Of a stretch of 53,441 nt of DNA, positions 725 through 52,628 are shown one piece after another. Position 1 is the first letter of the stretch. Every line of letters begins with the position of its first letter. The notes beneath the pieces are model-generated. The model had not been told where the DNA came from and searched no databases. It saw nothing but the letters and a program-made list of their open reading frames with translations. A program made the position numbers and the translations under genes. The DNA is from a virus (Duplodnaviria > Caudoviricetes): IMG/VR virus record IMGVR_UViG_3300037761_000058, positions 1-53,441 of that record; one strand, given 5' to 3'.

Positions 725-725
725 C

Positions 726-2868: not shown

Positions 2869-3587
2869 GGCTTCCCCCTCAGCGTGTCGCGGTAGGCGCG
2901 GATGGCTGGCCCGCATTGGATGCAGCCCCCGGCTAGCCGTACAGCCTCGTTCGCCACTTCCCGCGCGCTCGGCTGCGGTGCTTCCGGCAGGGTGGCGGCG
3001 AGCCTATCTGGGAATCCAACGCGCTCGGAAACGTCATTGAATTTAGACACCGCAGCGCGACCTAGATCAACGCCGAGCACTTCGGCCAGCAGATCAAGGT
3101 ACGTGAGCACGTCGGCGATCTCGTCTGCGAGCATTTTGTCCGTCGGCGAGAACTTGTTTCCTGCCAAGCCGTCGCGTTCGCGGTTGCGCATCTTGAGTAA
3201 CGACGCCAACTCGCCCAGTTCGCCGGTCACAGCAGTCAGCCAATCAGACGGCGACCACGATGCGATCCCGGCAGGATGCCACTTGATGCAACGCTCTACA
3301 TTGGCGCGACGAAACTCACTGAAGGTTAGGTCCGCCACCGCCCGAGCGTTCGCTGGTAGCGGCGCGGTGGCAGATAGCAGACCGATCAGTTCGTCGATCT
3401 CGGTAACGTCGAAAGTCCATTCCTCGGCGTGTGGATATTCGGCCCCTGCGCTACAGCGGTCCTCGACGGTCAGCAACAGTACGCGCGCGTCGTATTCAGC
3501 GCCGGGGCCGCGTTCCACCGTGGCCTTCGTCGCCAGCAGGAACTCGATCAGTTCTTTCCGCACTGCCTCATTGGGCGAAGGTTTCAT
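2865..3587 (-). CDS. MazG-like nucleotide pyrophosphohydrolase domain protein
   Basis: GELGEL...LADEIADVLTYLDLL...KFN acidic motifs of the all-alpha NTP-PPase family; start re-assigned to 3587. Confidence 0.8.
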   Translation of the reverse strand: MKPSPNEAVRKELIEFLLATKATVERGPGAEYDARVLLLTVEDRCSAGAEYPHAEEWTFDVTEIDELIGLLSATAPLPANARAVADLTFSEFRRANVERCIKWHPAGIASWSPSDWLTAVTGELGELASLLKMRNRERDGLAGNKFSPTDKMLADEIADVLTYLDLLAEVLGVDLGRAAVSKFNDVSERVGFPDRLAATLPEAPQPSAREVANEAVRLAGGCIQCGPAIRAYRDTLRGKP

Positions 3588-4120
3588 GCTGCCATCTCCA
3601 TTTGTTGAACTGCGACCTTGCGCTCGGCAAGGCAAATCGTGTCGTTGTGGTCGCTCCCGTGGCACACCAGGAGAAGTTCCTCGATCTCGAACCCGAGCTT
3701 GCGCCCCATGCCGGTAGAGTTCCAGCCGAAGGTCAACACGACGCCCTCTGGGCCCAGGACGCGGCAGACCTGTTCCTTCAACCGCTTGTGGAACCAGCCG
3801 CGTAGGGCGTCCCATTGCTTCATCTTCAGGCCGATGCCGTCGTAGCACTCCTTGACTTGGCGCGGGCTGTAGGGCGGGTCGATCAGGATGCAGTCCGCCT
3901 TCACGCCTTCGTCGGCCAGCTTCGCTAGGAAGTCCACCGCGTCCATGTGGTGCTCGGCGGCAGTAGCGGGGTTGAGGTCGTTGGTGTGCGTGGCCCATCG
4001 CTTGTTGCGCGCGAACGGATCGACGCTAACGCCTTGGAGATACCGGCGCACGAACTCACCCATCGGCTTACAGTCGAAGGTGTCGGCGGTGGGCATAGCC
4101 CATGCGCGGCTGAACTTCAT
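3584..4120 (-). CDS. small phage DNA (adenine) methyltransferase
   Basis: DPFA SAM-binding-like motif and DPPY catalytic motif; start MKFSRAW after GAGGGG. Confidence 0.75.
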   Translation of the reverse strand: MKFSRAWAMPTADTFDCKPMGEFVRRYLQGVSVDPFARNKRWATHTNDLNPATAAEHHMDAVDFLAKLADEGVKADCILIDPPYSPRQVKECYDGIGLKMKQWDALRGWFHKRLKEQVCRVLGPEGVVLTFGWNSTGMGRKLGFEIEELLLVCHGSDHNDTICLAERKVAVQQMEMAA

Positions 4121-4148
4121 TTCCCCTCTGGGGTACTGGACGACGGCT

Positions 4149-4457
4149 TCATACTTTCGACCTCGCTTCGTAGACTGCGGCGCGGGCTTCCTGAGAAGCA
4201 TTGCGGGCCTGTTCCTTGCGGTACTGCTTCATGTTCTCGATGGTCTGCCGGTAGTGGTCGCCGCTGACGCGCTCCAGGGCAGCGAGGATCTGCTCTGCTT
4301 CGTGCAGCGCGATCCCCGTGCTGTCCGGGTACTTGCCGAGGGCGTGCAGGTCGTCCTGCATCTGCTTGTAGGCGCGTTCGATCCTGGCGCGGGCGAGCGT
4401 GATCTCGAAGCCGAGGCGCTGCTCGACGGTTAACTTGAGTGCGTTGCTGGCTCTCAT
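4149..4457 (-). CDS. hypothetical protein
   Basis: ORF track; operon context. Confidence 0.55.
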   Translation of the reverse strand: MRASNALKLTVEQRLGFEITLARARIERAYKQMQDDLHALGKYPDSTGIALHEAEQILAALERVSGDHYRQTIENMKQYRKEQARNASQEARAAVYEARSKV

Positions 4458-4634
4458 CCTTGCCGCCTCGTTGCTAGAGGCTTGCCTGGAGTGGCTACCG
4501 CAGGGCTCTCGCTCGAAAGCGTGCCTTTTACAGCGCCCGGGTCAGGCTCGGCCAGTAATCTCTGGCTTACCCTGCCCTGCGGTGCCACGTTGACCATCAT
4601 GTTTTTTCCTTGCTGCAGTAGCTGTTCGAGGCCA

Positions 4635-5318
4635 TCACGCGAATAACCGTTCTTGGCGCTGCGCCACGTCGATGCGCTCGCAGGCGATGTTGAAGTAGGA
4701 CGGATCGATTTCCACGCCGATGAATGGGCAACCGGCACGAGCAGCAGCGACCCCTGTGGTGCCGCTGCCCATGTATGGGTCAAACACCGTCTGCCCAGGC
4801 AGCACGCGGGCTTCCTTGAGGCACCACGACATCAGGGCGATCGGCTTCTGCGTGGGATGCTGGCGGGCACCGTTGGCCTCGCCTACCTTGTCACAGGCGA
4901 TGCCCTTCCACTTCATGCTGAAGATCCTGGCGGCACGGTCTGCCGAGTGCCAAGCGAACTCGACGTCCGAGAAGCTATCCCACGGCTCCATGCCGTCCAG
5001 CTTGTCCCAAGCGAGCCACCGGCCACTGTCAGGCAGGCGCGGGTAGAAATGGTCTGCTCCCCACATCAGGACGTTCGTGAAGGCCAGCCACGGCTCTGGA
5101 TCGAACGGCGAGGCATCTCCGACGATCGGCATCTTGGCGTTGCGGCGCTTGTGCGCTCCCCGCCCGCCGCCAGAATGCTGGTGGGCGATGCCGTAGGGCG
5201 GGTCGGTGATAACGGCATCGGCTCGCAACTCCGGAAGGATTGACAGGCAATCCCCGAGGTAAAGGGTCGCATTCCCGATCTCGACCTTTCTGCAATTAGT
5301 CATTACACCGCTTCCCAC
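4635..5318 (-). CDS. N6/N4 DNA methyltransferase (beta class)
   Basis: TDPPY before HPTQKP and DPYMGSGTTG motifs. Confidence 0.9.
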   Translation of the reverse strand: MGSGVMTNCRKVEIGNATLYLGDCLSILPELRADAVITDPPYGIAHQHSGGGRGAHKRRNAKMPIVGDASPFDPEPWLAFTNVLMWGADHFYPRLPDSGRWLAWDKLDGMEPWDSFSDVEFAWHSADRAARIFSMKWKGIACDKVGEANGARQHPTQKPIALMSWCLKEARVLPGQTVFDPYMGSGTTGVAAARAGCPFIGVEIDPSYFNIACERIDVAQRQERLFA

Positions 5319-5749
5319 AGTAGTTTCTGGCCTTGCAGCAGTTCGGAGGTGTCGATCCTCGGACGGCTAGGCACGTTCCATTTGCCGCCTCCACGCTCGC
5401 CAAGGAGTTTCCAGCCAGCTGCACGAAGGCTTGAACCGCCTTCCTCCGGCAGCGTGTAGGTGACGAGCCTGCGGTAGCCCAATGCCTTTGCAGCGCGCCA
5501 CGCGGCCCCGTAGAGCATCGAGCAGGCGTTCCTGGCCCCATCGGTGCATACCCGGTTGACCTCCAGCGTGTAGCCGTTGTCGCTGTTCCTGGCGACCGGC
5601 CTGCCGACCATAGCGACCCCGCGCACCTTGCCGTCCGTGTCGCTGACGGCGACGCAGAACTTGCATCCCGGCATTGGCTTGTGGTGGCGGTGAAAGGTCG
5701 CCACGAAAGCGTTTGCCTCTGCGAAGTCGATGGGCGTCACTTGGAGCAT
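5303..5749 (-). CDS. XF1762-family conserved phage protein
   Basis: EANAFV..HRHH, GRPVAR, EVNRVCTDG..NACSMLYGAA, TYTL..E.G.SL signature. Confidence 0.75.
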   Translation of the reverse strand: MLQVTPIDFAEANAFVATFHRHHKPMPGCKFCVAVSDTDGKVRGVAMVGRPVARNSDNGYTLEVNRVCTDGARNACSMLYGAAWRAAKALGYRRLVTYTLPEEGGSSLRAAGWKLLGERGGGKWNVPSRPRIDTSELLQGQKLLWEAV

Positions 5750-5786
5750 CGTGCCTCTACAGCGCCAGTGCCGAAGACCGCAGCCA

Positions 5787-6230
5787 TTAGAAATTCCCCT
5801 CGGCCACTTGCAGGCACCGGAAGCCTCGCTTGCGCCACATCTTCACTACCTGGTCGCGGTCATCCAGCACGAGAAAGGTATTGGCTGGCCTGAAGCCGCA
5901 CCTATCGGCCATTTCCGCCTTCACGATGCAGTCCTGCCGCGTATCGCCGTCAGGACGCATTTGCAGGCTCCCCTCGGGGAACCCATGCGCGAACAGCCAC
6001 GAAGCTGTCTGTGCCCTCACACGCTCTACACGGCCAGTCAGGTAGGCTATAAGGAGGCCCTTGGCGTGCAGCAGCTTCACCAAATCACGGATGTCCTCGT
6101 GCGGCTGGTCCTCGCCGCATAGGTCATAGAACTTGTCCCAATCCTTCTTCTGCGAGCCGTCAATGAGGTACTTGCGCGGCTCCGCATTGGAACAGGTCCC
6201 GTCCAGGTCGATGATGGCGTAGAGTTTCAT
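5787..6230 (-). CDS. HAD-family phosphatase, T4 PNKP 3'-phosphatase-like
   Basis: DLDGT, LTGR, K and DDR motifs; C-terminal LQVAEGNF. Confidence 0.85.
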   Translation of the reverse strand: MKLYAIIDLDGTCSNAEPRKYLIDGSQKKDWDKFYDLCGEDQPHEDIRDLVKLLHAKGLLIAYLTGRVERVRAQTASWLFAHGFPEGSLQMRPDGDTRQDCIVKAEMADRCGFRPANTFLVLDDRDQVVKMWRKRGFRCLQVAEGNF

Positions 6231-6244
6231 AGCGGTGCAGTTAC

Positions 6245-6463
6245 CTAAACTACGACTGGAGAACCGTTGAAGATGGCCTTGATTTCCTCGGCCTTCGGGT
6301 GCTCTACCGCGCACTGGTTGAGGATGAGCGCCGCACGGCTCCATAGTTCCGGCTGCGCTTCAGGCGGCTGGTAGACGCAGCTTTGCCGTGTGCTCGCCAA
6401 TCGGTCCTTCAGGTCCGGGGCCACTTCGAGAATCTTGTCCAGAACTTCGTGTAGTTGTCTCAT
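6245..6463 (-). CDS. hypothetical protein
   Basis: AGGAG RBS before MRQLHEV. Confidence 0.6.
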   Translation of the reverse strand: MRQLHEVLDKILEVAPDLKDRLASTRQSCVYQPPEAQPELWSRAALILNQCAVEHPKAEEIKAIFNGSPVVV

Positions 6464-6493
6464 CTCATTTCTCCTATGTAGGGCCACAGAACC

Positions 6494-6859
6494 TTAAACA
6501 GTGAAGCCTTTCTCAGCTAGCCGGGCCTTGACTCGCTCGACACCTTTCTCTTGCAAAAAGGCGACTACACGCTCGGCGGCCATCTGTGGCGTCAGGCCGG
6601 AAACTCCGCTGAACGTACCAATGGTGAGCCCGCTTTCCCAATGGCTCACGACCCATGAATCGAAGAAGCTATCTTGCGCTGGCGTGGCCCATGTCTTGAT
6701 GAACTCGAAGCCCGGCACCTGGAACGCGAACCCATCAACCATCTTCTTGTGGCCTGGTTCGTGCGCGTGATCTATGAAGCCGCTAATGGGGATCATGTTC
6801 ATTCGCTGTCTCGCTCGTTGGTGTCTAACACCGGGGCCACTTGCGGTGAATCGCGTCAA
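6494..6859 (-). CDS. hypothetical protein (probable start at MNMIPI)
   Basis: ORF track; operon context. Confidence 0.55.
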   Translation of the reverse strand: MTRFTASGPGVRHQRARQRMNMIPISGFIDHAHEPGHKKMVDGFAFQVPGFEFIKTWATPAQDSFFDSWVVSHWESGLTIGTFSGVSGLTPQMAAERVVAFLQEKGVERVKARLAEKGFTV

Positions 6860-7013
6860 TGTCCACGCCGGGGAAGTCCTTGGTCGGAAGCATTCCCATG
6901 CCAGCGCGCCATTTGCGCACCTGTTCTTTGTGGCATGGGTAGCACTGCATCAACTTCCTCGGTGCTCGCAACTCGACGCCGCAATCTCTGCACTTGGCAA
7001 CGGCAGCAATCAC
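6825..7013 (-). CDS. small CxxC zinc-finger protein
   Basis: CRDC...CYPC; start overlaps recombinase stop. Confidence 0.5.
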   Translation of the reverse strand: MIAAVAKCRDCGVELRAPRKLMQCYPCHKEQVRKWRAGMGMLPTKDFPGVDIDAIHRKWPRC

Positions 7014-7972
7014 GCAGCCGCCATCAGCTTGTCGTACTTCGCGTGCAGATCCTCGGGCTTGCGGCCGTCGTAGACCTTCTCCAAGATGATCGTGTTCCGG
7101 TGCCCGCTGATGAGCCGGACTTCGTGCGGCGGCAGCACCTTCAGATACCGGCTGATGGCCTCGCGCCGGTTGTCGTGGAAGCGAAGGTCAACGATGCCCA
7201 GGGCTTTCTTCGCCAGCGTGTAGCGCGCGCCGAGTGACTTGTCGTTGTAGGGGAACACCCGTTCCGTGGGCTCGTCCGTGAGCCTCGGCTGCGCCTTGAT
7301 GATGGCAGCAAGCTCGTCGAACAGCGGGAAGGTGACGTGGTTCCCTTTCTTCTGCGTGGGGTGCTTCAGGTCGCGCACCATGTAGGTGCGCTTCTCCCAG
7401 TCGATGTCGCCCCACTGCATGCGGCAAATCTCCCCGCGGCGCCTCGTGGACGCCAGCGCGAACATCATGCAGGGCACGGCCTTGATCTTCGCGTGCTCGT
7501 CCTGCTCGCCCAGGTAGTCGATCAGGCGGTGCAGTTCATCGTCGGTCGGCCGGCGCTTCCTCGGCGTGGATTTGCCCACCAGTCCGTGCTTCGACAGCAT
7601 CGGCATAGCGGCCGTGATACAAGCGTCCGACACGTTCTCGCAATCGTCCCACCTGGAGGGCGCGTACTTCAGCACCCCGCGCAGGAACGTGATGTCGTGC
7701 ATTGCCGTGGCCGGGCAGATGCCCTCCGCACGGCGAGCCATGACGTGATCCACCACGTCTGTTTTCTTCAATTCAGCAGCCATCTTTTCGACAATCGGAT
7801 ACCGCTGCAGCCGCCGAAGGCAGTACAGATGCGACTCACCAAGTGGGTCAATTTCATTCATGGCAGTGATAAAACGGTCGATCAGGTCTTTCAGTTTCAC
7901 GTCTAATACTCCCGAAGTGAGGCAGCGCCGCGTCCTTCTCTTTACGCTGCCGGTTAAGAACTGCACATTCAT
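7010..7972 (-). CDS. second tyrosine recombinase, no obvious arm-binding domain (alternative start GTG 7900)
   Basis: RRGEI, K, FHDNR, SGH and C-terminal Tyr match the catalytic residue set. Confidence 0.88.
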   Translation of the reverse strand: MNVQFLTGSVKRRTRRCLTSGVLDVKLKDLIDRFITAMNEIDPLGESHLYCLRRLQRYPIVEKMAAELKKTDVVDHVMARRAEGICPATAMHDITFLRGVLKYAPSRWDDCENVSDACITAAMPMLSKHGLVGKSTPRKRRPTDDELHRLIDYLGEQDEHAKIKAVPCMMFALASTRRRGEICRMQWGDIDWEKRTYMVRDLKHPTQKKGNHVTFPLFDELAAIIKAQPRLTDEPTERVFPYNDKSLGARYTLAKKALGIVDLRFHDNRREAISRYLKVLPPHEVRLISGHRNTIILEKVYDGRKPEDLHAKYDKLMAAA

Positions 7973-8136
7973 TTCTGAACCCTAAATGGCTCGTCGATCC
8001 TAAATTTCTCGATCTGCTGATCCGTAGGGTTCCGCTGCTCGGTCTTCGGACATCCTGGTTGCTTGCACCACAGCGCAACGTCGGCCGGAGTCCAGGTGAT
8101 GCCGCAGATAGGGCAGCGGCCGGTTACTTGGCTCAT
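7969..8136 (-). CDS. 55-aa Cys-rich protein (MSQVTGRCPICG...)
   Basis: Hand-translated; ATGA overlaps at both ends. Confidence 0.6.
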   Translation of the reverse strand: MSQVTGRCPICGITWTPADVALWCKQPGCPKTEQRNPTDQQIEKFRIDEPFRVQK

Positions 8137-8825
8137 GCTGATCTGCTCGCAATGCCTGATTCCTGAACTACGCGAACGCCCGGGTAGATCAAGTCCTCTT
8201 TGAGAACCCGGGCTTGGTTGTTCAGGAACGTCATGTTGGCGTCCAGCGCATTCAGCGGGACGGAGCCAGCCGCTACGGCCTTGACGAGCTCCAGCTTGCT
8301 CACAACCTCGGCCCGGTAGGTGGTCCTGGTGGACAGCCCGGCGATCTTCGGCGTGGTGGGGGCGATGATGGGCGCCACTACTGCCGCCGCCGCTGCCTCG
8401 AGCGCGGCTGCCTTCTCCGTCTTCCCCTTCTCTGCGGCCTTCGCAGCCTGCGCCTCGAGCCGTTCCCGTTCCTTCCGGGCTTCCTCTTGGGCCTTGGCTT
8501 CAGCTGCGCGCCGGATCCGCTCCTGCTCCTGCTGATAGCCCAGGACGGCCCGCTTGACGTAGCCCTCGGCGTCGATCAGCGGTTGCTGGTGCTGCTTCTT
8601 CTCGGCGACCAGAGCTCGGTGAGCGTCGAATGCCCGCTTGATGTGCGGGTCGAACGTCTCGTCCAGCTTCTTCGACAGCGCCTTGATGACCTTCAGCTTG
8701 TCGGCGGATTCGATGTAGTGCTCCTCGCTCGTAACCCGGAACTCCTTGGCGACGGTGAGGGCGTTGCTGGTTTCCTGTACCAGTTCGGGCGTGGCGAGAT
8801 CGGTCACTTGTGCAGTTCCTTCCAT
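8133..8825 (-). CDS. coiled-coil protein of the recombination module
   Basis: Helical composition with C-terminal PGVRV motif; adjacent to exonuclease and annealase. Confidence 0.6.
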   Translation of the reverse strand: MEGTAQVTDLATPELVQETSNALTVAKEFRVTSEEHYIESADKLKVIKALSKKLDETFDPHIKRAFDAHRALVAEKKQHQQPLIDAEGYVKRAVLGYQQEQERIRRAAEAKAQEEARKERERLEAQAAKAAEKGKTEKAAALEAAAAAVVAPIIAPTTPKIAGLSTRTTYRAEVVSKLELVKAVAAGSVPLNALDANMTFLNNQARVLKEDLIYPGVRVVQESGIASRSA

Positions 8826-9472
8826 GCGTGGATGTTGAGCAGCGAGCGGAACACGTACTCATCGTTCTGCTCGTTGTACGAATAGAGCTTGTAGGTTCCG
8901 TCGCGTAGCAGCTGGACCCCGGCCCGCTTCTTGACCTTGATGCCGAGGCTTTCCGCGGCTGCGATGCTGTAGCCGGCCGTCTGGATGGCCGTCGCAGGGT
9001 CCATCGCCCATACGCACTTCGTATCCAAGAGCTCGTCCGGGGATTCGCTATCGAAAACGCGGGTCCCGAGCAGGTCAGGTGTGCCGGCGAATCTCAGCTT
9101 CCTCGAGTAGACGATCGGCTGATTGAGGAGTACCCGGAACCCGGTGTCCTGCTTGAAGGCAATCCAGGCCCGGAAGAAAGGCAGCACCGCAAGGTCCACG
9201 GAGTCCATGTCAAGGTCCTGCCTCTCCCATAGCGTGATCGCTGTATCCAGGGCCTTGCCGATCTGGCGCTTGTACTCCCGGGCTGCATCCGAGCCGCCCA
9301 TGCTCTGCAGCGGCCGGATGATCGTGGTCACAGAGGGAACGAGGTAGCCGTCAATCCGGTACTCGTGCCGTTCCTCGTCGAAACTGATCTCAGCCGGCTT
9401 CATCTGGTTGTCTAGTTGTTCCTGAATCCACTTGTCGTACTCGTAGTCTTCAGAGCCAGGGACGTAACTCAC
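8804..9472 (-). CDS. PD-(D/E)XK exonuclease
   Basis: PSVTTI, AGTPDL, DTK and Q..GY motifs. Confidence 0.82.
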   Translation of the reverse strand: MSYVPGSEDYEYDKWIQEQLDNQMKPAEISFDEERHEYRIDGYLVPSVTTIIRPLQSMGGSDAAREYKRQIGKALDTAITLWERQDLDMDSVDLAVLPFFRAWIAFKQDTGFRVLLNQPIVYSRKLRFAGTPDLLGTRVFDSESPDELLDTKCVWAMDPATAIQTAGYSIAAAESLGIKVKKRAGVQLLRDGTYKLYSYNEQNDEYVFRSLLNIHAWKELHK

Positions 9473-10299
9473 TCAGGCGTCTGCTCCCCGATCCAGACCA
9501 AAACGCGATTCACTTCGCCGAACGCGATGTCCTCGATCTTCTCGACCTTGAACTGCGCGCATAGCTTTTTCTCGTCCACAGTGCCGCCTTCGAGCTTCTT
9601 GCGGATGAACTTCAACTGACCGGATTCCAGCTTCTTCGAAGGATCAGCTGGCGCTGCTGCCGACTTCGCCCGCGGCTGCTGTACGGTCTGCTTCTGCTCG
9701 CCCTCGGTGACGGCTTCGCGTACCTCATCCGGCATGTCTTCGAGATCCTGGTTGAAGCAGTCGGAAGCCGCTAGGGCGGTGAGAGTGAAGTCGATTTGGC
9801 CGCGCTTCTTTGCCATCTTAAGGACCGTGTTCGCAACGTCAGCGGGCTCGGTCCTGACTTGCTGGACGGTGTAGTGTCCCTGTTGCTTGCGGCCGAACTT
9901 GACCCTACGCCGCGTTTCCGGCGTGCCGTCGAACTCCTCCTCGCAGACGGCCCGGCGCCACTTGTATTTCTCCTCGCCGCTTGAGCACTCACCGAGTCCG
10001 GTTCCGATTACGATGCCGCTGGTCTGATGGGTTCCTGTGCAGAAAACCCGGTAGCGAATCTCGTCCCCGGTTGACAGGTCCTCGACGCGAGGATTCACCG
10101 CAATGCGAAAGGTGGTGAGCAGAACTTCGGATCCGGCTTTGTAGAGCGCCGGCTTATCCGTTCCCGGGATGGTCCCGTAGTGGACTCCCTCTTTCATCAC
10201 GCTTTCCATGACACGCTGGATCAGCTGGACGTGTCCCTTAACTTCGGCCGCCGTGAGGGCTCTGGCTTCGTTCGGAATGACTGCGACTTCGGTGTTCAT
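9469..10299 (-). CDS. putative single-strand annealing (recombination) protein
   Basis: HYGTIPGTDKP.L.KAG.E, NTVLKMAKKR and F.QDLED motifs; paired with exonuclease; AAGGA RBS. Confidence 0.7.
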   Translation of the reverse strand: MNTEVAVIPNEARALTAAEVKGHVQLIQRVMESVMKEGVHYGTIPGTDKPALYKAGSEVLLTTFRIAVNPRVEDLSTGDEIRYRVFCTGTHQTSGIVIGTGLGECSSGEEKYKWRRAVCEEEFDGTPETRRRVKFGRKQQGHYTVQQVRTEPADVANTVLKMAKKRGQIDFTLTALAASDCFNQDLEDMPDEVREAVTEGEQKQTVQQPRAKSAAAPADPSKKLESGQLKFIRKKLEGGTVDEKKLCAQFKVEKIEDIAFGEVNRVLVWIGEQTPE

Positions 10300-10310
10300 G
10301 GAGTTCCTTT

Positions 10311-10637
10311 TCACAGTGTTCTCGCTCTCGCGCATGCCGGAATTGCCGGCGGCAGGGCACCATCGCCCCATGATCTGATCCACTCCTGGCCCACATCCTC
10401 GACGCCATCGTGGCGCACGCATGGCACTGGCGGCGTCAAGCGCATCAGGTCGATCGGCGACTCGAAAGCTGTCGCTGGTGGCATCCGCTCCGCCACCATC
10501 GCCTGCGTAACCACGGCTTCGTCGTAGTCCTTGGTGTGTGCCGCCACCACGAGGATCACCACCAGTGCAGCGTAGAAATACTCGCGCTTGCGTGGCTTGC
10601 CCGTAGGCAGTGGCGGCAGGTAGCGGCGCTCGGTCAT
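10311..10637 (-). CDS. single-TM hypothetical protein, first gene of the leftward operon
   Basis: Hydrophobic segment; ATG 6 nt after the PL -10. Confidence 0.6.
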   Translation of the reverse strand: MTERRYLPPLPTGKPRKREYFYAALVVILVVAAHTKDYDEAVVTQAMVAERMPPATAFESPIDLMRLTPPVPCVRHDGVEDVGQEWIRSWGDGALPPAIPACARARTL

Positions 10638-10643
10638 GGGCAA

Positions 10644-10688
10644 AGCCTAATGCGTACTTACATAGGCTGTCAATGCTTTTTTACATAG
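10644..10688 (-). promoter_or_regulatory. PL-like promoter (TTGACA-N18-TAGGCT) with two operators
   Basis: Operators CTATGTAAAAAAGCAT (10688-10673) and CTATGTAAGTACGCAT (10665-10650). Confidence 0.75.
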
Positions 10689-10733
10689 ACTTGCCAGAGC
10701 AAAGGGCAGGATCGGAGTTAACTTGTTGAGAGG

Positions 10734-10919
10734 CTAGGTTTTCTTTCGCGCCACGAAGGGGATGAGTTCTGCGGATCCGCCTTCGTAATCTGCAGCCGCG
10801 GCGTGAATGAAGTGCCGGACGTGTTCCCGGTTATCTAGGCTGCAAGCTCGATACGCTCTAACGACGAGGACTTCTTCGGCCGTCAGTAGGACTAGAGCCA
10901 CCGGAGCTTGTATCGACAT
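10734..10919 (-). CDS. small protein downstream of repressor
   Basis: ORF track; overlaps the cI 3' end. Confidence 0.45.
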   Translation of the reverse strand: MSIQAPVALVLLTAEEVLVVRAYRACSLDNREHVRHFIHAAAADYEGGSAELIPFVARKKT

Positions 10920-11265
10920 CGCGTTCGATAGCGCCTATCGCTCCTTTGGCGGCAAGGATGAGCAATTTTCGACCGTTCTCGCCAGAGTGCGCCCAGGCCC
11001 GCAGGAGTAGCAGGAACTTTTCATCACTCGCAGCCGGCATTAACAGTTGCCAACATTCTACGCCGAGCCCCATAGCGAGCGCTTCCAGATGATCGACCGT
11101 GGCGCCGTTGGTCGATCGCTCAATCCTGCTGACCGTGCTTTGGTCTACCTCGAGCCCGTGCCGCTTCGCTGCTTTGGCAACGTCCGGCTGGCTGAGCTCC
11201 TTGTCCGCCCTGATCGCCTTGATGTTCTCTGCCACGAGATCCCTTAAAGGCTTGGTTTTATGCAT
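10858..11265 (-). CDS. XRE/CI-like repressor
   Basis: NIKAIR...LSQPDVAK...QSTVSRIER HTH; divergent from cro-like gene; start MHKTKP. Confidence 0.85.
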   Translation of the reverse strand: MHKTKPLRDLVAENIKAIRADKELSQPDVAKAAKRHGLEVDQSTVSRIERSTNGATVDHLEALAMGLGVECWQLLMPAASDEKFLLLLRAWAHSGENGRKLLILAAKGAIGAIERDVDTSSGGSSPTDGRRSPRR

Positions 11266-11338
11266 AGAAACAGAGTAACCGCTCTCGCCATGCGACGTTA
11301 CCTTGACAGCCTGTGTAAACATGCATGAGAATGGCTTC
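11266..11338. promoter_or_regulatory. PR/PRM divergent switch with operators
   Basis: TTGACA 11303, operator CTGTGTAAACATGCAT 11311-11326, GAGAAT 11327; minus-strand TACTCT 6 nt before the cI ATG. Confidence 0.72.
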
Positions 11339-11563
11339 ATGGACGAACCAATTTTCGAGACGATCAAACGTCGCCTCGAGGAGTGCAAGGGGGATTTGCC
11401 ACAGATCGCAGACGAGTCAGGCGTCAACATCGCCACGATTCGGAACATCCTGAACGGCAGATCCGATAACCCGGGCGTGCAAAAGTGCCAGATGCTCCTC
11501 GACTACTTCCGCGCTCGGGACGAGATGATTTCCAAGTTGCGGCGCCAGGAAACGGCTGCGTGA
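11339..11563 (+). CDS. Cro-like HTH regulator
   Basis: LPQIADESGVNIATIRNILNG HTH. Confidence 0.82.
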   Translation: MDEPIFETIKRRLEECKGDLPQIADESGVNIATIRNILNGRSDNPGVQKCQMLLDYFRARDEMISKLRRQETAA

Positions 11564-11597
11564 GTTCCCCCGTCCGCTTCCCCCCTGAGCGGACTTT

Positions 11598-11634
11598 CCC
11601 CGGCCGGCTTGCAGGCTGGCCGGGGTTTCTTTTT
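11598..11634 (+). terminator. tR1-like intrinsic terminator
   Basis: CCCCGGCC...GGCCGGGG stem followed by TTTCTTTTT. Confidence 0.75.
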
Positions 11635-11645
11635 CTAGGCGCCTG

Positions 11646-11864
11646 ATGTCTCTCCGCGGCAAGGAAGTAAGGCCGTTTCTTGATGATGCAGTACACGAGC
11701 GGCTGTCCATCATGGCCGAGTTCAAGGACATGCAGATTGCGGAGCTCGCTGCTCGTCTGCTCGAGAAAATGATCGTGGCTGAGTGGCATGAGGTCAGTAT
11801 CCTGATCGAGCGTTCCGAGCGCCTTGGAAAAAGGTGGAAGGCCGTCGAAGGCGACGAGAAGTGA
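11646..11864 (+). CDS. small regulator at the cII position (RHH-like)
   Basis: Position after cro; strand-helix-helix pattern. Confidence 0.55.
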   Translation: MSLRGKEVRPFLDDAVHERLSIMAEFKDMQIAELAARLLEKMIVAEWHEVSILIERSERLGKRWKAVEGDEK

Positions 11865-11875
11865 GCGCCTAGGCT

Positions 11876-12598
11876 GTGTACAACAAGCTGTTCACGAAGA
11901 TTCTGGATTCGACGATTTGGCTCGAATCCGACTCTACCCGGCTGGTCTGGATCACCTTCATCGCTGCAATGGACGAGGACGGCTTTGTGGCCCTCTCCAG
12001 CGTCGGCAATGTGGCGGCTAGGGCCAGGGTATCCCTTGAGGCTGCAGCCGCAGCCATCTTGTCCCTAGAGAGCCCTGACGCGCAGGACAAGACACAAGAC
12101 CACGACGGCCGACGCATAGAGCGCGTCCCTTCAGGCTGGATGGTGCTGAACGCCGCCAAGTACCGGGACATCATTCTCCGGGCGTCAGCCAGGGAGCAAA
12201 CAAGGGCTCGTGTAGCCAAGCACAGGGCGCGTAACGCTGATGTAACGCATGGTAACGGTGAGAAACGAAATGTTACGCCATCAGTAGCAGTAGCAGTAGC
12301 AGTAGCAGAAGCAAAGAAAGACACTAGCTCGCGCAAAAACGGCGCTCGCCAAGCACGCATAGATTCTTCCCCCGTCATTCAAACCCTACCTCTACGGGAA
12401 GGGGGTGATTTTCAAGTCCACCAGTCCCTCATTGCCGAGCTTGAGCCTTTGTATCCGTCCGTGGACGTGACGACGACGATCGGCGAAATGAAGGGCTGGC
12501 TGATAGGGAACCCAACGAAGCGCAAGACCCGCCGCGGGGTTACGGCATTCATCACGCGCTGGCTGCAGCAAGAGCAGGAGAAGGCCAGTGGCGTTTAA
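11876..12598 (+). CDS. phage replication initiator
   Basis: N-terminal wHTH-like region, RV.KHR motif, internal DNA repeats, C-terminal WL..NP..R...FI.RWL. Confidence 0.75.
   Translation: MYNKLFTKILDSTIWLESDSTRLVWITFIAAMDEDGFVALSSVGNVAARARVSLEAAAAAILSLESPDAQDKTQDHDGRRIERVPSGWMVLNAAKYRDIILRASAREQTRARVAKHRARNADVTHGNGEKRNVTPSVAVAVAVAEAKKDTSSRKNGARQARIDSSPVIQTLPLREGGDFQVHQSLIAELEPLYPSVDVTTTIGEMKGWLIGNPTKRKTRRGVTAFITRWLQQEQEKASGV
12231..12311 (+). repeat. putative origin: phased GTAACG-like iterons plus (CAGTAG)4
   Basis: GTAACG at 12231, 12242, 12252; GAAACG 12262; GTTACG 12272; CAGTAG tandem 12282-12305. Confidence 0.55.
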
Positions 12599-48854: not shown

Positions 48855-48920
48855 GGCCACTGTGGGCCTTCCTAGGGCTATCCTGTGCAGGGCGGTCCAA
48901 GTGGTCAGGGCTTGACAGCA

Positions 48921-48975
48921 GGACTCAAAATCCGCCGGGGTCAAACCCGTGGGGGTTCAAATCCCCCTTCCGGCA
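48921..48975 (+). other. attP core: 3' half of tRNA-Leu(CAA)
   Basis: GGA-CTCAAAA-TCC, long variable arm, GGGGGTTCAAATCCCCC T-arm, TTCCGGCA; 5' half absent; abuts integrase stop. Confidence 0.85.
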
Positions 48976-48982
48976 CTAGGAC

Positions 48983-49963
48983 TTAGGCGTGTTTCTTGAG
49001 CCTTGGACGAGAATCACGTCCCCGCGCCCTCCCTGAGACGCGCGGCAGACCGTCTACAGCCTCCCTCAGATGCTCATGGGCTAGGTGGGCGTAGCGGCTG
49101 GTCACGGCGAGGCTGGAATGCCCCAGGAGATCCCTGACCACGGTGAGGCTGGAACCGCTCTGCACGAGCCAGGAGGCGTAGGTATGCCGGAGGTCATGGA
49201 ACCTGACGTGCTCCATCCCAGCCTTCCTGCGGGCCTCCCTGAAGCCCCATTCGAGGCCATCGGGGGAAAGCCGGATTGGCAGGCGGACCCCGGCAGCTTC
49301 AGGTGGCAGGGGAACGATCCGTGGCCGGCCGTTCTTCGTGTCCTTCAGGACCAGCGACCCGTCCCGACTGTCTTCGGGCTGCAGGCTCAGGAGTTCCCCG
49401 CGGCGTAACCCGGTCAGGGCGGCGAGCATGATGGCGTCCCGCACCGACCTAGAAGCGTGGCCGGCGAGCTCCTTGACTTGGGCCGGCGTGAGGAAGACGT
49501 GCCGCTGCTTCTCCCCCGGTAGGAGCGTGATCCGGTCCCCAAGCGGCTGATCGAGCCATCCCCACTGCCTCTGAGCCAGCCGGGCGACCCTACGCAGGAC
49601 AGCCAGTTTCCGGTTGACCGTGGCAGGAGCGGCTTTCCTCTTGATGGCGTCGGCCTTCAGCATCTCGGACACGTCTACTATCTCGGTGAGCGATCGGCTC
49701 TTGGCGAAGGGGTAGATCGTGCGGACCTTCTTGATGAGGTCGGCGTGGGAGCGGAGCGTTGCGGCTTCCCCGGTCAGCCAACGGTGTAGAGCTTCCTCGA
49801 GCGTGTACTGCGGCGTCCTTCCAACTCGATGATCTTCGAGCCGTCCCCGTGTCCTGCGTTCCCACTCGAAAGCATCCGCCCTACGCCCAAAAGAGCGGCT
49901 AAGTCGCCTGCCGCCAAACTGAATCCGGGATTCCCAGGTCTTTCCGTGGCGCCTGACCGGCAA
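48983..49963 (-). CDS. int: phage integrase (tyrosine recombinase)
   Basis: TGLRRGEL, TKNG, FHDLRH, LLGH, RYAH; TTG start after GGAGGAG. Confidence 0.95.
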   Translation of the reverse strand: MPVRRHGKTWESRIQFGGRRLSRSFGRRADAFEWERRTRGRLEDHRVGRTPQYTLEEALHRWLTGEAATLRSHADLIKKVRTIYPFAKSRSLTEIVDVSEMLKADAIKRKAAPATVNRKLAVLRRVARLAQRQWGWLDQPLGDRITLLPGEKQRHVFLTPAQVKELAGHASRSVRDAIMLAALTGLRRGELLSLQPEDSRDGSLVLKDTKNGRPRIVPLPPEAAGVRLPIRLSPDGLEWGFREARRKAGMEHVRFHDLRHTYASWLVQSGSSLTVVRDLLGHSSLAVTSRYAHLAHEHLREAVDGLPRVSGRARGRDSRPRLKKHA

Positions 49964-50112
49964 AGGTACTCCTCCCAAGCCTCGGCCCGGATTCTAACAA
50001 GAGCCCCAAGTCGTATGGTCTTGAGCCTGCCGGCGAGGATCTGGCGCCTGATGTGCCGCGGCGAACACTTCGCCCTGGCAGCGCAATCCTCGATCGTCAG
50101 GAGGTCAGTCAT
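49774..50112 (-). CDS. xis: excisionase (HTH_17-like)
   Basis: LLTIEDCA...S..HIRR.I..GRL....LG..VRI; overlaps int start. Confidence 0.8.
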   Translation of the reverse strand: MTDLLTIEDCAARAKCSPRHIRRQILAGRLKTIRLGALVRIRAEAWEEYLCRSGATERPGNPGFSLAAGDLAALLGVGRMLSSGNAGHGDGSKIIELEGRRSTRSRKLYTVG

Positions 50113-50292: not shown

Positions 50293-50364
50293 TAGCCCGA
50301 GCTGGGATCGAACCAGCGACCAAGCCCTTATAAAGGACACGCTCTACCACTGAGCTATCGGGCA
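50293..50364 (-). tRNA. tRNA-Ile, anticodon UAU
   Basis: TGCCCGA-TA-GCTC-AGTGGTA-GAGC-G-TGTCC-TTTATAA-GGGCT-TGGTC-GCTGG-TTCGATC-CCAGC-TCGGGCT-A folds as a cloverleaf; U:U at 1:72 and 27:43; no encoded CCA. Confidence 0.85.
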
Positions 50365-50564
50365 TTGTCTTTTTCTAAAACCCACCCGCAAAGAGGGCAC
50401 TGTGTTGGTTCTGAAATATCTCGGCGCTGATACTCTAATTGCGTAGCTGCGGCACGGCTAAACTGCCTGATCAGTTCGCGCTCAACGTCACTAGGCGCGT
50501 TCTTTGTCATCCACGCAGTCAGCTTGTCCACGTCCCATTTCGTCAGATGTATCGGTTGGCTCAT
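50355..50564 (-). CDS. hypothetical protein ending inside the tRNA 5' end
   Basis: ORF track; CPLC motif. Confidence 0.6.
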   Translation of the reverse strand: MSQPIHLTKWDVDKLTAWMTKNAPSDVERELIRQFSRAAATQLEYQRRDISEPTQCPLCGWVLEKDNAR

Positions 50565-50568
50565 GTGA

Positions 50569-50952
50569 TTAATTCCCGTAGTCCAGAGCTACAATTTTCC
50601 CATCCAACATTCCGAAGCTGTCTATCTTCGGCTCGCATGGCACATAGTAGTCGTCACCGACTAGCCAGCCGTTAGCAATTGTCGGCTCGAAAGTGCTCCA
50701 TTGCTCCTCAGTGAGTGGCTGGGCGCGGCGCATGACTACTAGTAGTCCTCCTGGTATCGACCACACCACGGGGCACAACTCTGGCCAACCAGCGGCACTG
50801 AAATCGACCTCTTGCATATTGGCTACCAAACCGAGCAGTAGATGCTTCCAAGACGGAGCAAACGGAATCTTGAAGACGTAACGCTTCGTCAGGAACACGG
50901 CGCGTGTTGCCCCGTAGTTGATCTCGCATCTCTGACGGATTGCTTCGCTCAC
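50569..50952 (-). CDS. minimal protein-kinase-like fold protein
   Basis: G..R.V...YVFKIP, QE, LVVMRR, G...GKIVALDYG. Confidence 0.5.
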   Translation of the reverse strand: MSEAIRQRCEINYGATRAVFLTKRYVFKIPFAPSWKHLLLGLVANMQEVDFSAAGWPELCPVVWSIPGGLLVVMRRAQPLTEEQWSTFEPTIANGWLVGDDYYVPCEPKIDSFGMLDGKIVALDYGN

Positions 50953-51146
50953 GTCTTCGCCCGGTCGATGGTAGGGCGAGCGTCGTCGTGGAACTCCCAC
51001 CAGAGGCGTTGCAAGGCGTCAAGTTCGGATTTCTTCCATCCGATAGACAGACAGAAGAACAGCCATTGAGAACAGGCCTCGATCTGTTTGCGAGTCCTAT
51101 GGCTGCTATCCAGAGTAAGGCGAGGCGTCACGGCTTTGTAGTCCAC
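50949..51146 (-). CDS. hypothetical protein
   Basis: Overlaps both neighbours. Confidence 0.55.
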   Translation of the reverse strand: MDYKAVTPRLTLDSSHRTRKQIEACSQWLFFCLSIGWKKSELDALQRLWWEFHDDARPTIDRAKT

Positions 51147-51391
51147 TTCGCAGCGAACTTGCTGATTTCCTCGTCAACGGCTTTGTCCAGCGATTCCGGG
51201 TCGCTATGCGTGCTCCACGACTCCGCCACATTTCCAGCGCTATCGTGCTGGCAGGAGTGCTCTCGCAGCCACCAGTAGCGCAGCGCATAGTCGCACAGGG
51301 CGTCTGGGGATTCATGCGAGTGCCCAGCGTTTTTCCAGTATTGACGCAGAACGCCACGCATCGTTTCGATCTGGTAGCGATCTAAGGGCAT
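51128..51391 (-). CDS. hypothetical protein (ALRYWWLR module)
   Basis: GAGGAG RBS. Confidence 0.6.
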   Translation of the reverse strand: MPLDRYQIETMRGVLRQYWKNAGHSHESPDALCDYALRYWWLREHSCQHDSAGNVAESWSTHSDPESLDKAVDEEISKFAAKWTTKP

Positions 51392-51612
51392 AATTTCTCC
51401 TCGTTCTCAGAGGGCAAAGGCTTTGGCAGTGCGTTCTGGATAGCATTGCTGGGTTTGAGTGGCGCGGCCTTTTGTCCATCGCTGTTATAGACGCCCTCAG
51501 GTTCTTTACCTGCTATCAAGTACAAGTCGATTGCCGCCAACAATCCAGTCCCAAAAAACATCATAGTCACGAATAACGCTACCTCAAACTCTTGTGCTTT
51601 CCAATCATTCAT
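51382..51612 (-). CDS. single-TM hypothetical protein
   Basis: Hydrophobic segment; ATGA overlap. Confidence 0.55.
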   Translation of the reverse strand: MNDWKAQEFEVALFVTMMFFGTGLLAAIDLYLIAGKEPEGVYNSDGQKAAPLKPSNAIQNALPKPLPSENEEKLCP

Positions 51613-51866
51613 GGCTGCTGATCTCCAGACTGGCGCTCGTGAACCGAGCGGAGGTATTCCGTTGCGCGCCTCCCGATGGCCTTCATGGAAGCCTCTTGGC
51701 GGTTAGCCGCTTCCGCCGCGTCGGAAATCTCCTGAAGCAGACAATCCACAACCTCCGTTAGATGGTTGAGATTCACCAGCCTGGCAACATCGACTTCATG
51801 TTTGCCAACTGCGCGCACTGGTCCGACAAGTTCCATGACAACGTTATAGGCGTTGTAGTTGACCAT
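51609..51866 (-). CDS. hypothetical protein
   Basis: GAGGAG RBS; abuts Thg1 stop. Confidence 0.6.
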   Translation of the reverse strand: MVNYNAYNVVMELVGPVRAVGKHEVDVARLVNLNHLTEVVDCLLQEISDAAEAANRQEASMKAIGRRATEYLRSVHERQSGDQQP

Positions 51867-52628
51867 CTATTTCTCCTCTATGTCGTCGGGCGAAGGATCG
51901 GGCATCCGGTACAGAGCCTCAACGTAGCCGCGATCCTGCGTGAACACGGGCGGCTCGGTGTCGAACTGCCATTCCCGGCGCTCGCACGTCTCACCCGTCT
52001 GCGGCACGGGCTTGAGAACCTTGACCGGCTTGCAGACAGTGCCGCGCTTGTAGATCGTAGGCGTGTCCTCCCACGGCTTCCCGGCTTCACGCAGGCGGTC
52101 GATCATGCCTCGGCTGTCCACGCCATGCAGGGCTTTGTGGGAGAACTGAGCCTGCGCGCACATGCTGATGCTGTTCCTGGTGGCGTCCTGCTGTCTCCAG
52201 ATCAAGTAGTTCGTGACCTCGCTCAAGTCAGGCAGCACGAAGGCACGGCTGTCGAACTGGCGCTGCCCCCAAGCTATCGGCGCACCGCCGTTGAACGCGG
52301 CGGTAGCGATAGCGGCACTCAGACTGAGTACCTTGTTCAGCCGCTTCCCGCACCACGCCTCGGTGTTCGGCACCATGTCGTCGCGCGCCACGATGCTGAT
52401 CTCGTCGGACTGGAAGTAGGCCAGCACCGCGCCCTGAATCTGCTTGCACAGGGCTACGGCTGCAAGGCACATCTGACCGTGGAAGATGTCATCGAACGGC
52501 TTTGCCAGCTTCAGGCCGTGGAAGGCTCGCCCGTCAACGCGGATCACCATAGGCATCCGGCGCGGCAGCGAGAAGTCGAAGCACGCTTCGTAAGCCTTGA
52601 AGCGGTCTCCAATGTCGTCGCCTTTCAT
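51867..52628 (-). CDS. thg1: tRNA(His) guanylyltransferase Thg1-like protein (3'-5' polymerase)
   Basis: IRVDGRAFH, KPFD, QSDEIS, FDSR, WRQ.D..RNS; both metal-binding Asp present. Confidence 0.93.
   Translation of the reverse strand: MKGDDIGDRFKAYEACFDFSLPRRMPMVIRVDGRAFHGLKLAKPFDDIFHGQMCLAAVALCKQIQGAVLAYFQSDEISIVARDDMVPNTEAWCGKRLNKVLSLSAAIATAAFNGGAPIAWGQRQFDSRAFVLPDLSEVTNYLIWRQQDATRNSISMCAQAQFSHKALHGVDSRGMIDRLREAGKPWEDTPTIYKRGTVCKPVKVLKPVPQTGETCERREWQFDTEPPVFTQDRGYVEALYRMPDPSPDDIEEK

Follow-up and report, generated by a model that had tools for sequence, protein, structure and literature searches.

A gene for a Thg1-like protein (TLP) lies close to a tRNA gene whose first acceptor pair is a U·U mismatch in the temperate phage analyzed here, which raises the question whether the two form a tRNA 5'-editing system, as the initial annotation had proposed, or are unrelated passengers of the same genome. 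The window, i.e. the whole stretch of DNA that was analyzed, comprises 53,441 nt and represents a temperate phage of about 53 kb with an integrase and a single confirmed tRNA; no related phage was revealed when 24 kb of its structural genes were compared by megablast with 50,697 phage records. We consider it rather probable that the accessory region preceding the xis and int genes carries the TLP and the tRNA as cargo items that are independent of each other.

The tRNA-Ile(UAU) gene

The tRNA gene (50293..50364, minus strand) was identified by both Rfam and ARAGORN and represents the sole above-threshold match to the tRNA model RF00005 in the 53,441 bases (58.6 bits at a gathering score of 29, E 3.5e-10, model positions 1-71). 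ARAGORN assigns the anticodon UAU, which reads AUA; the initial annotation had compared it with an E. coli tRNA that has GAU. The Infernal alignment contains exactly two non-canonical pairs, U1·U72 and U27·U43, every acceptor pair from 2:71 to 7:66 is of the Watson-Crick type, the discriminator is A73, and an A is found at position -1. This agrees with the first description of the gene as the one full tRNA, with U1 opposite U72, perfect pairs 2-7, A73 and a second U:U at 27:43. Because the 3' side reads A-C-C-C, the CCA end is not fully encoded. The conserved elements of the D-loop and the T-loop are present. The isoleucine identity elements of E. coli are A73, A37, A38, C4:G69 and U12:A23, and all of these occur in the phage tRNA, although this list may not fit the IleRS of the phage's host. 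About 45 AUA codons are distributed across the roughly 75 crude frames of the phage, and other phages also carry tRNA-Ile(UAU) genes. The tRNA-Ile(UAU) gene is real, a bona fide tRNA gene.

A tRNA-His had already been noted as missing, and none was detected in the window by ARAGORN and Rfam; the two other ARAGORN calls, Arg-CCU (8738-8820) and Leu-CAA (48895-48976), fail the Rfam threshold and neither is a tRNA-His. Addition of G-1 to a phage tRNA-His is ruled out for this phage, as there is no tRNA-His gene.

Positions 1-10 of the tRNA overlap the last codons of a 69-aa frame (50355..50564, minus strand), such that the third base of an Asn codon is tRNA nucleotide 1 and the TAG stop corresponds to nucleotides 8-10. 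This frame matches no protein-family profile (Pfam, PHROG); viral contigs yielded no relative of it, and the protein collection nothing beyond its own 90% cluster. In the protein collection the frame occurs in three variants from independent assemblies, ending in ..DNAR, ..DNAQ and ..DNAP, which all retain the Asn codon, and U1 is thus not an assembly error. It follows from these endings that a pyrimidine is retained at tRNA position 1, and that position 6 is different in each of the three near-identical variants (A6 or C6 occur). Since the variants are at least 90% identical, however, the pyrimidine at position 1 may reflect mere common descent. Pattern scans of viral contigs for the 5' half of the tRNA gave 0 matches. 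Among the contigs of four DNA sequencing runs, a 547-nt contig spans positions 50303-50796 at about 89% identity, taking in most of the tRNA plus neighbouring genes. The runs recorded as containing this DNA include no RNA run.

With two mismatches and a middling score, the tRNA may be partly decayed. That the gene is decaying or non-functional and its TLP neighbour coincidental is improbable in our view, but it is the alternative that survives best. It would account for two stem mismatches that both lie on 5' strands, for the incomplete CCA and the 58.6 bits, for an acceptor position 6 that differs from variant to variant, and for the relatives of the TLP slot that are devoid of this tRNA (see below). 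On the other hand, the tertiary-interaction and loop consensus positions align at full posterior probability, the score is normal for a phage tRNA, falling within the range of the others that we found, tRNAs of well-studied phages also show 1:72 mismatches, and the 547-nt contig retains most of the tRNA together with its adjoining genes. If the TLP and the tRNA are independent cargo items, as we favour, the latter would be a working rare-codon tRNA for AUA and U1·U72 a tolerated variant, of a kind found in about 3% of phage tRNAs.

A bacterial-type Thg1-like protein

The TLP gene (51867..52628, minus strand) is an uninterrupted frame of 253 aa. Its product matches Pfam PF04446 (Thg1) with 74.6 bits (cut-off 29.2) over profile positions 2-130 of 130, and phrog_4717 ('tRNA-His guanylyltransferase') with E 2.7e-67. 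The best solved relative is the TLP of B. thuringiensis (BtTLP; 4KGK, E 2.1e-47, residues 4-239), and matches to the eukaryotic Thg1 proteins of C. albicans and human are far weaker (E about 5e-7 to 1e-6). The metal-site carboxylates D32, D75 and E76 align with D30, D75 and E76 of BtTLP, E14, R30 and R128 with its NTP-contacting residues E12, R28 and R131, and the activation-step residues K43, S74 and N152 are present as well. Across 31 relatives the three carboxylates are invariant, and the NTP-contact and activation residues are invariant or nearly so. In Thg1, a specific segment following the WRQ motif reads the anticodon; at this position the phage protein has DATRNSI, like BtTLP, and Candida Thg1 has DCHINNL, so that the eukaryotic anticodon-reading segment is absent from both bacterial-type proteins. 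PMC3701042 names as essential or activating the BtTLP residues that are matched here.

Judged by its sequence, the phage TLP is thus a bacterial repair-type 3'-5' polymerase with intact active-site residues. It resembles BtTLP (4KGK/4KGM; PMC3701042) in its full-length alignment, similar length and shared carboxylates and NTP-contact residues, and would be expected to perform the same reaction, i.e. activation with ATP or GTP and then template-directed 3'-5' extension of 5'-truncated tRNAs. In contrast to BtTLP, it is encoded by a temperate phage of a host with about 60% G+C. According to PMC3701042, BtTLP accepts many different tRNAs, with a preference for those from which nucleotide +1 is missing, and its assay substrates include tRNA-Ile without G+1.

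Genomic context and mobility

The TLP gene and the tRNA-Ile share a strand, the end of the former being 1,503 nt upstream of the latter; the interval is filled with frames that abut or overlap, and no terminator-like site was found between the two on their strand. They are probably co-transcribed, as implied by the earlier statement that an intact Thg1-like gene lies about 1.5 kb upstream in the same operon. The interval contains three small overlapping or abutting frames of 87, 76 and 85 aa (51128..51866, minus strand), none of which reached the thresholds for a Pfam or PHROG family. For the 87-aa product there is a relative at 90% identity or more, with the source label of a Candidatus Binatia MAG contig. 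They are followed by a gene for a 143-aa phage protein (50569..51000, minus strand; phrog_4301, function not assigned, E 2.8e-21) without a Pfam match, whose nearest named Atlas cluster is, as a lead only, Phage_T7_kinase (23% of members, score 0.92); a relative search with this frame yielded one distant locus (L107). No nuclease was recognized by Pfam and PHROG among the genes neighbouring the tRNA and the TLP.

Downstream of the tRNA the operon continues leftward with an excisionase-like helix-turn-helix protein (49774..50112, minus strand; Pfam HTH_17, E 3.1e-6) and ends with a tyrosine integrase (48983..49978, minus strand; Pfam Phage_integrase, E 1.5e-23). The degenerate Leu(CAA)-like element called by ARAGORN at 48895..48976 (plus strand) adjoins the integrase gene; it has four unpaired acceptor positions, remains below the Rfam tRNA threshold and scores only 24.2 bits with the tRNA-Sec model. 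It is probably the core of an attachment site that contains the 3' portion of a tRNA of the host. The TLP gene occupies a moron-like position in the integrase-proximal accessory region, next to this probable attachment site.

We found 775 relatives of the TLP, with identities reaching 83% in soil and sediment metagenomes; its clade, a distinct one from soil and sediment, shows 54-83% identity, and the 162 matching phage records showed 29-44% identity. On the eight contigs with the closest relatives (54-79% identity) the flanks are unrelated and this tRNA-Ile is absent, and on none of the eight did Rfam detect a tRNA directly following the TLP gene. A comparison of 10 neighbouring proteins with 104 loci of TLP relatives yielded a homologue of the integrase alone, with 28% identity (locus L014). 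The TLP gene is therefore mobile and resides in an exchangeable cargo slot, as had been suspected from the start.

Such a position would also suit an enzyme with targets other than tRNA 5' ends, for example one that extends or caps small RNAs or transcripts, or a gene by which the prophage benefits its host. TLP4 of Dictyostelium (DdiTLP4) works on non-tRNA substrates according to PMC5041481, and some phages with a TLP have no tRNA at all: full-length RF00005 scans of 21 TLP-carrying records gave no tRNA for five and a single one for two more, and the complete genomes of Staphylococcus phage PMBT8 and Vibrio phage P018-4 belong to those without any. We nevertheless regard this possibility as unlikely, given that BtTLP, the closest characterized relative, repairs tRNAs in vitro and that an Rfam scan of the whole window showed no non-tRNA partner RNA.

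TLP presence and tRNA mismatches across phages

The initial annotation had interpreted the TLP and the U1·U72 tRNA as a candidate editing system and suggested a survey of whether phage Thg1 genes co-occur with 1:72-mismatched tRNAs. We compared 272 tRNAs from 16 TLP-carrying phages with 240 tRNAs from 13 TLP-less phages. In this hand-picked sample, which is confounded by host taxonomy and whose statistics ignore kinship, no association was apparent: 1:72 mismatches occurred in 6/272 tRNAs of TLP-carrying and in 11/240 tRNAs of TLP-less phages (Fisher p = 0.15), a trend opposite to that expected for editing, and mismatches anywhere at positions 1-3 in 8/272 versus 14/240 (p = 0.13). U·U at 1:72 was found four times with and five times without a TLP. 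The pairing of a TLP with a mismatched tRNA in the phage studied here is thus no more than chance. Taken together, 17 of the 512 sampled phage tRNAs (about 3%) have a 1:72 mismatch, especially U·U, with or without a TLP.

In a first, smaller sample all 1:72 mismatches of TLP-carrying phages were in tRNAs for Ile, His or Arg (4/150), and those of TLP-less phages in Met and Gln tRNAs only (0/145 among the non-Met, non-Gln tRNAs). This post hoc isoacceptor pattern was lost on enlargement of the sample (4/239 versus 2/207, p = 0.69).

In a dedicated editing pathway, U1 would be removed and the TLP would add an A opposite U72, giving a functional tRNA with A1:U72. RNase P prefers a U at position -1 of its cleavage site; removal would most plausibly consist of an RNase P cut before G2, with U1 mimicking U(-1) and G2:C71 starting the helix. 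All parts for such a pathway are present and probably co-transcribed, and a tRNA without nucleotide +1 is exactly what BtTLP-type enzymes prefer (PMC3701042). It is documented that RNase P can miscleave a bacterial tRNA by one nucleotide inward, and the product has been proposed as a TLP substrate (PMC4284800). Related phage tRNA-Ile genes retain U72 and A73 and have a purine at position 1, and A1 or G1 is therefore the expected state. Moreover, position 1 is a pyrimidine in 3/3 variants of the tRNA studied here in spite of a changing position 6, tRNA-Ile is mismatched at 1:72 in 2/12 cases in TLP-carrying phages versus 0/14 in TLP-less phages, and the TLP-carrying phage CcrColossus has a tRNA-Ile(GAU) with the same layout of A(-1), U1·U72 and A73.

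Despite these points we consider dedicated editing very unlikely. Mismatches at 1:72 or at positions 1-3 are not associated with the presence of a TLP, and the U1-G2...U72 layout is shared by five tRNAs of TLP-less phages (T5 Gln and Met, KVP40 Met, Aeromonas phage 4_4572 Gln and Bxz1 Trp). The closest TLP relatives occur without this tRNA, some TLP phages are tRNA-less, the second mismatch, U27·U43, is beyond repair by a TLP, and the pyrimidine in variants that are at least 90% identical may persist by descent. The phage does resemble the amoebozoan mitochondria with 5'-editing (Dictyostelium TLP3, Acanthamoeba; PMC5041481, PMC4284800) in combining a TLP with a 5'-mismatched tRNA gene, for which templated repair would give a Watson-Crick pair. 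In these organelles, however, most tRNAs are mismatched (12/15 in A. castellanii; PMC4284800) and editing was seen by RNA sequencing, whereas here a single tRNA is concerned and mismatches in phages do not track the presence of a TLP. Even for mitochondria, PMC4284800 names no activity that removes the mismatched 5' nucleotide. Least probable of all is a programmed version, in which tRNA-Ile(UAU) would be made with a deliberate U1, cut by RNase P between U1 and G2 and become functional only after addition of A by the TLP; if true, it would tie AUA decoding to expression of the phage's early operon and extend programmed tRNA 5'-editing beyond organelles for the first time. Of the initial interpretation, the intact bacterial-type TLP and its exchangeable slot thus stand, and the union of TLP and U1·U72 tRNA in a 5'-editing system is not supported.

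A predicted role in tRNA 5'-end repair

As an independent cargo item, the TLP would be an enzyme for general repair or surveillance of tRNA 5' ends. Judging from BtTLP, its homologue, it would activate a 5'-monophosphate end with ATP or GTP and then add the missing nucleotides in 3'-to-5' direction, with the 3' acceptor strand as template, a chemistry predicted from its family. Its main substrates in vivo would be tRNAs of the host, or of any origin, whose 5' nucleotides were lost through misprocessing or nuclease attack, and it may have a counter-defence role. Repair of host tRNAs, which the initial annotation had offered as its fallback, is the best-supported predicted role. Should RNase P occasionally cut between U1 and G2 of the tRNA-Ile, the TLP might rebuild the end as A1:U72, but this incidental rebuilding is of low probability and would be a by-product of general repair rather than a dedicated system.

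A general 5'-end repair role for phage Thg1 has already been proposed: phage Thg1 was interpreted as an enzyme restoring 5' ends (PMC7824862) and linked to RNA repair genes (PMC2904730), and for bacterial TLPs repair of RNase P miscleavage products was suggested (PMC4284800). PMC4284800 and PMC5041481 give no known physiological substrate for any bacterial or phage TLP, and our literature search for experiments on phage TLPs returned annotations, reviews and comparative genomics only. A point against a 5'-end repair role is that tRNA-directed defences, in the abstracts surveyed, cut anticodon or variable loops and not 5' ends.

The TLP may act alongside a stand-alone polynucleotide-kinase-type 3'-phosphatase domain (HAD_PNKP) encoded in the same leftward gene block (5787..6344, minus strand; Pfam PF25109, 97.8 bits at a cut-off of 27.6; phrog_415, E 8e-34, and phrog_505, E 4e-33, 'polynucleotide kinase'), possibly a second RNA-end-healing activity of the phage. 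Phage T4 heals and seals tRNAs at an anticodon-loop break with Pnkp and Rnl1. The phage studied here shares with T4 a PNKP-type phosphatase domain and thus the potential for phage-encoded RNA end repair; unlike in T4, neither a kinase domain nor an RNA ligase was found in the 37 frames scanned, about half of its roughly 75, and the TLP would rebuild lost 5' nucleotides, not anticodon-loop breaks.

Implications for phage TLPs

The locus represents one more phage TLP, from a soil and sediment clade and carried as integrase-proximal cargo. TLPs of the same family (phrog_4717), with the same proposed role of restoring tRNA 5' ends (PMC7824862 and PMC2904730), are known from large lytic and jumbo phages (Bacillus Bastille-like and Caulobacter phiCbK-like phages, 201phi2-1); in contrast to the 53-kb genome with an integrase and a single tRNA described here, these are mostly 90-500 kb in size, lytic and tRNA-rich. 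For the idea that phage TLPs go along with 5'-mismatched tRNAs, our sample gives a negative answer, and the rate of about 3% of 1:72 mismatches irrespective of a TLP is a useful background for reading phage tRNA genes. For the question which substrates TLPs act on, genetics would be simpler in an inducible temperate phage of this small size, with its single TLP and single tRNA, than in a jumbo phage.

A tRNA-Ile(UAU) gene with a mismatched first acceptor pair

Only one RNA family passes the Rfam threshold in the window, a tRNA at 50293-50364 on the minus strand (tRNA model, 58.6 bits). Rfam, ARAGORN and a reading of the frames bear out the initial annotation on every point of sequence: the U1:U72 mismatch is present, with two non-canonical pairs (U1/U72 and U27/U43) marked in the Infernal alignment, pairs 2-7 are Watson-Crick, the discriminator (position 73) is A, and neither ARAGORN nor Rfam finds a tRNA-His in the window. 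The anticodon called by ARAGORN is UAU; the tRNA thus reads AUA and is not the GAU isoacceptor. Position -1 is A and the 3' side continues with ACCC, so that CCA needs post-transcriptional completion.

A 69-aa frame stops within the tRNA gene, its last codons (AAT GCC CGA TAG) covering tRNA positions -2 to 10, with base 3 of the Asn codon at position 1. Two variants of this frame, of at least 90% identity, occur in other assemblies; the three sequences end in ..DNAR, ..DNAQ and ..DNAP and differ at tRNA position 6 (G, A or C). Because position 1 is a pyrimidine in all three, an assembly error at U1 is excluded. A different sediment run contributes a 547-nt contig spanning 50303-50796 at about 89% identity, which indicates that the tRNA and its two neighbours persist in diverged relatives. 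In a crude gene set of the phage, AUA accounts for about 45 of the roughly 629 Ile codons, and tRNA-Ile(UAU) genes are common among phages.

Beside the tRNA lies the gene of a 143-aa protein (50569-51000, minus strand; phrog_4301), whose 47%-identical relative (L107, 5001-5423) is found on a 381-kb viral contig that also carries a Thg1-like gene (G004:46321-46722) beside a cluster of 29 tRNAs. As a lead only, the nearest named Atlas cluster hints at a T7-kinase-like fold (23% of members). The 87-aa product of 51128-51391 (minus strand) has a relative of at least 90% identity on a 44.8-kb contig that NCBI places in a Candidatus Binatia MAG; this may point to the host or to a nearly identical phage.

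The Thg1-like protein and its mobility

The Thg1-like gene (51867-52628, minus strand) is indeed intact, and its end lies 1,503 nt upstream of the tRNA; the frames in between abut or overlap, and that strand shows no terminator-like site. Its product, a Thg1-like protein (TLP), matches Pfam Thg1 with 74.6 bits and PHROG 4717 with E 2.7e-67. Its closest solved structure, by a wide margin, is that of the Bacillus thuringiensis protein BtTLP (E 2.1e-47, full length), eukaryotic Thg1 matching at about 1e-6. The carboxylates D32, D75 and E76, together with E14, R30, K43, S74 and R128, align with residues given as essential in PMC3701042, and vary little or not at all among 31 aligned relatives. According to the same paper, BtTLP repairs many kinds of 5'-truncated tRNAs in vitro, with a preference for tRNA without nucleotide +1 (PMC3701042). 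The structure match, the essential residues and the behaviour of BtTLP thus place the phage protein, by sequence, within the TLP subgroup of bacteria; its active site is intact and it is predicted to be active. No experimental work on a phage TLP turned up in a literature search.

In a large protein collection the TLP has 775 relatives, reaching 83% identity and encoded for the most part on short contigs from soil or sediment; 104 loci around relatives were retrieved for flank comparison. Among ten proteins flanking the TLP, the integrase alone has a homologue in these loci (L014, 28% identity), and the window tRNA has none. Around the close relatives (L004-L021, L056) ARAGORN calls no tRNA-Ile, and the Rfam matches in eight of their contigs are just a truncated tRNA on the opposite strand (L008) and a weak one 5 kb off (L020). 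At the locus of a distant relative (L065, 43% identity) a tRNA-Ile(UAU) with a perfect stem lies 270 nt downstream of the TLP gene. ARAGORN made 35 calls no more than 10 kb from TLP genes in metagenome and genome loci; position 1 is unpaired in just two of them, both doubtful. The unrelated flanks and the absence of the tRNA near relatives show that the TLP moves as a single cargo gene, and on these comparisons the tRNA is confined to the phage itself and its closest relatives.

Probable attachment site and early gene block

The window, a single contig of 53,441 bases with a G+C content of about 59.5%, is a temperate phage. Nearly all of its DNA is present in one sequencing run, a sediment metagenome, and megablast of 24 kb of rightward genes against 50,697 phage records found no relatives. 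A long leftward gene block ends with a tyrosine integrase (48983-49978, minus strand), which closes it together with an excisionase-like HTH protein (49774-50112, minus strand). Adjoining the integrase is a degenerate tRNA-Leu(CAA)-like element (48895-48976, plus strand), an ARAGORN call below the Rfam tRNA threshold with four acceptor positions unpaired, which looks like an attachment-site core retaining two parts of a host tRNA-Leu, the T arm and the 3' acceptor strand.

In a circularly permuted record the leftward block would run on over the contig ends into 1-12,400, which contains exonuclease-like genes, DNA methyltransferases, a Mom-like protein, a second integrase-family gene, a repressor-like gene and a PNKP-type phosphatase. 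The second integrase-family gene (7010-7972, minus strand; phrog_1, E 5.5e-38) lies in the middle of this early block, additional to the integrase at 48983-49978. An ARAGORN tRNA-Arg(CCU) at 8738-8820 (plus strand), antisense to two exonuclease-like frames, is probably a false positive: its T arm is poor and Rfam does not match it.

Acceptor-stem mismatches in phages with and without a TLP

TLP genes were found by tblastn in 162 phage records, mostly of large lytic phages. Seventeen of these, hand-picked for host diversity, and four viral contigs (L001-L003 and the L107 contig) gave 21 TLP-carrying records, each scanned whole with the Rfam tRNA model. Five are without tRNA, namely three fragments and the complete genomes of Staphylococcus phage PMBT8 and Vibrio phage P018-4; a single tRNA is present in each of another two phages. 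The controls were 13 phages without any match to the Thg1 profile, seven from BLAST matches of the window tRNA and six well-known tRNA-rich ones (T5, KVP40, T4, Bxz1, S-PM2 and LP65). Acceptor stems were taken from ARAGORN structures in stretches with Rfam matches only.

The proposed co-occurrence of TLP genes with 1:72-mismatched tRNAs was not found; the difference lies in the opposite direction, with such mismatches in 6 of 272 tRNAs from 16 TLP-carrying phages versus 11 of 240 from the 13 TLP-less ones (Fisher p = 0.15; the sample is hand-picked, and the statistics ignore phage and host relatedness). Any mismatch at positions 1-3 occurs in 8/272 versus 14/240 (p = 0.13), a 1:72 mismatch outside Met and Gln in 4/239 versus 2/207 (p = 0.69), and U·U at 1:72 in 4/272 versus 5/240 (no p value); all counts include every ARAGORN call, a few doubtful ones among them. 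In both groups position 1 is mismatched about as frequently as positions 4-7, and the U1-G2...U72 layout is also seen in the TLP-less phages T5 (Gln, Met), KVP40 (Met), Aeromonas phage 4_4572 (Gln) and Bxz1 (Trp).

Three observations run against regarding the TLP and the tRNA as independent. An initial, smaller sample had the four mismatches of its TLP-carrying phages exclusively in Ile, His or Arg and the seven of its TLP-less phages exclusively in Met or Gln; tRNA-Ile is mismatched in 2/12 cases in TLP-carrying versus 0/14 in TLP-less phages; and a tRNA-Ile(GAU) of the TLP-carrying phage CcrColossus has A(-1), U1·U72 and A73, the end layout of the window tRNA. These patterns are post hoc and their numbers too small to carry weight.

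In CcrColossus, a Caulobacter phage, tRNA-His(GUG) and one of two tRNA-Ile(GAU) (L132, 3301-3375 and 9596-9671) share the leader ...TTCTGA, U1·U72 and A73, again the end layout of the window tRNA. The tRNA-His genes of seven TLP-less phages (L142, L143, L145, L163, L164, L179, L182) all have G1:C72, C73 and T at -1, so that G-1 is not encoded, whereas those of ten TLP-carrying phages (L124, L126, L128, L132, L158, L160, L162, L172, L175, L176) have A73 in six cases, C73 in three and U73 in one, with G at -1 in five; this contrast rests on small numbers and is confounded by host.

Probably two independent cargo items

We consider the TLP and the tRNA most likely to be independent cargo items. 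The tRNA would supply a rare codon, AUA, and its U1·U72 would be of a type that phage tRNAs tolerate. Editing of its 5' end by the TLP, as initially put forward, would take its most economical route if RNase P cut before G2 and the TLP then added A opposite U72. We regard this as very unlikely, given that TLP-carrying phages show no excess of 1:72 mismatches and that mitochondrial editing systems, in the account of the review PMC4284800, have mismatches in most of their tRNAs, unlike this phage. The same account describes 5'-editing as not found in bacteria or archaea and the nuclease that removes the mismatched 5' nucleotide as unknown even in mitochondria (PMC4284800), which would make editing in a phage notable if true.

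As an independent cargo gene, the TLP would most likely restore 5' nucleotides lost from host or phage tRNAs by misprocessing or nuclease damage. A stand-alone 3'-phosphatase of the polynucleotide-kinase type (HAD_PNKP, 5787-6344, minus strand; Pfam 97.8 bits; phrog_415, phrog_505), encoded in the same leftward block and about 6.6 kb upstream of the TLP if the contig is circularly permuted, is compatible with an RNA-end-healing toolkit; no RNA ligase or kinase domain was found in the 37 frames scanned, roughly half of those in the phage. The TLP might also serve in counter-defence; the tRNA-directed defences in the literature consulted cut loops, not 5' ends. Rebuilding of tRNA 5' ends has already been assigned to phage Thg1 in comparative papers (PMC7824862, PMC2904730), and for bacterial TLPs the review proposes the same repair role where it cites RNase P miscleavage of tRNA-Gln (PMC4284800).
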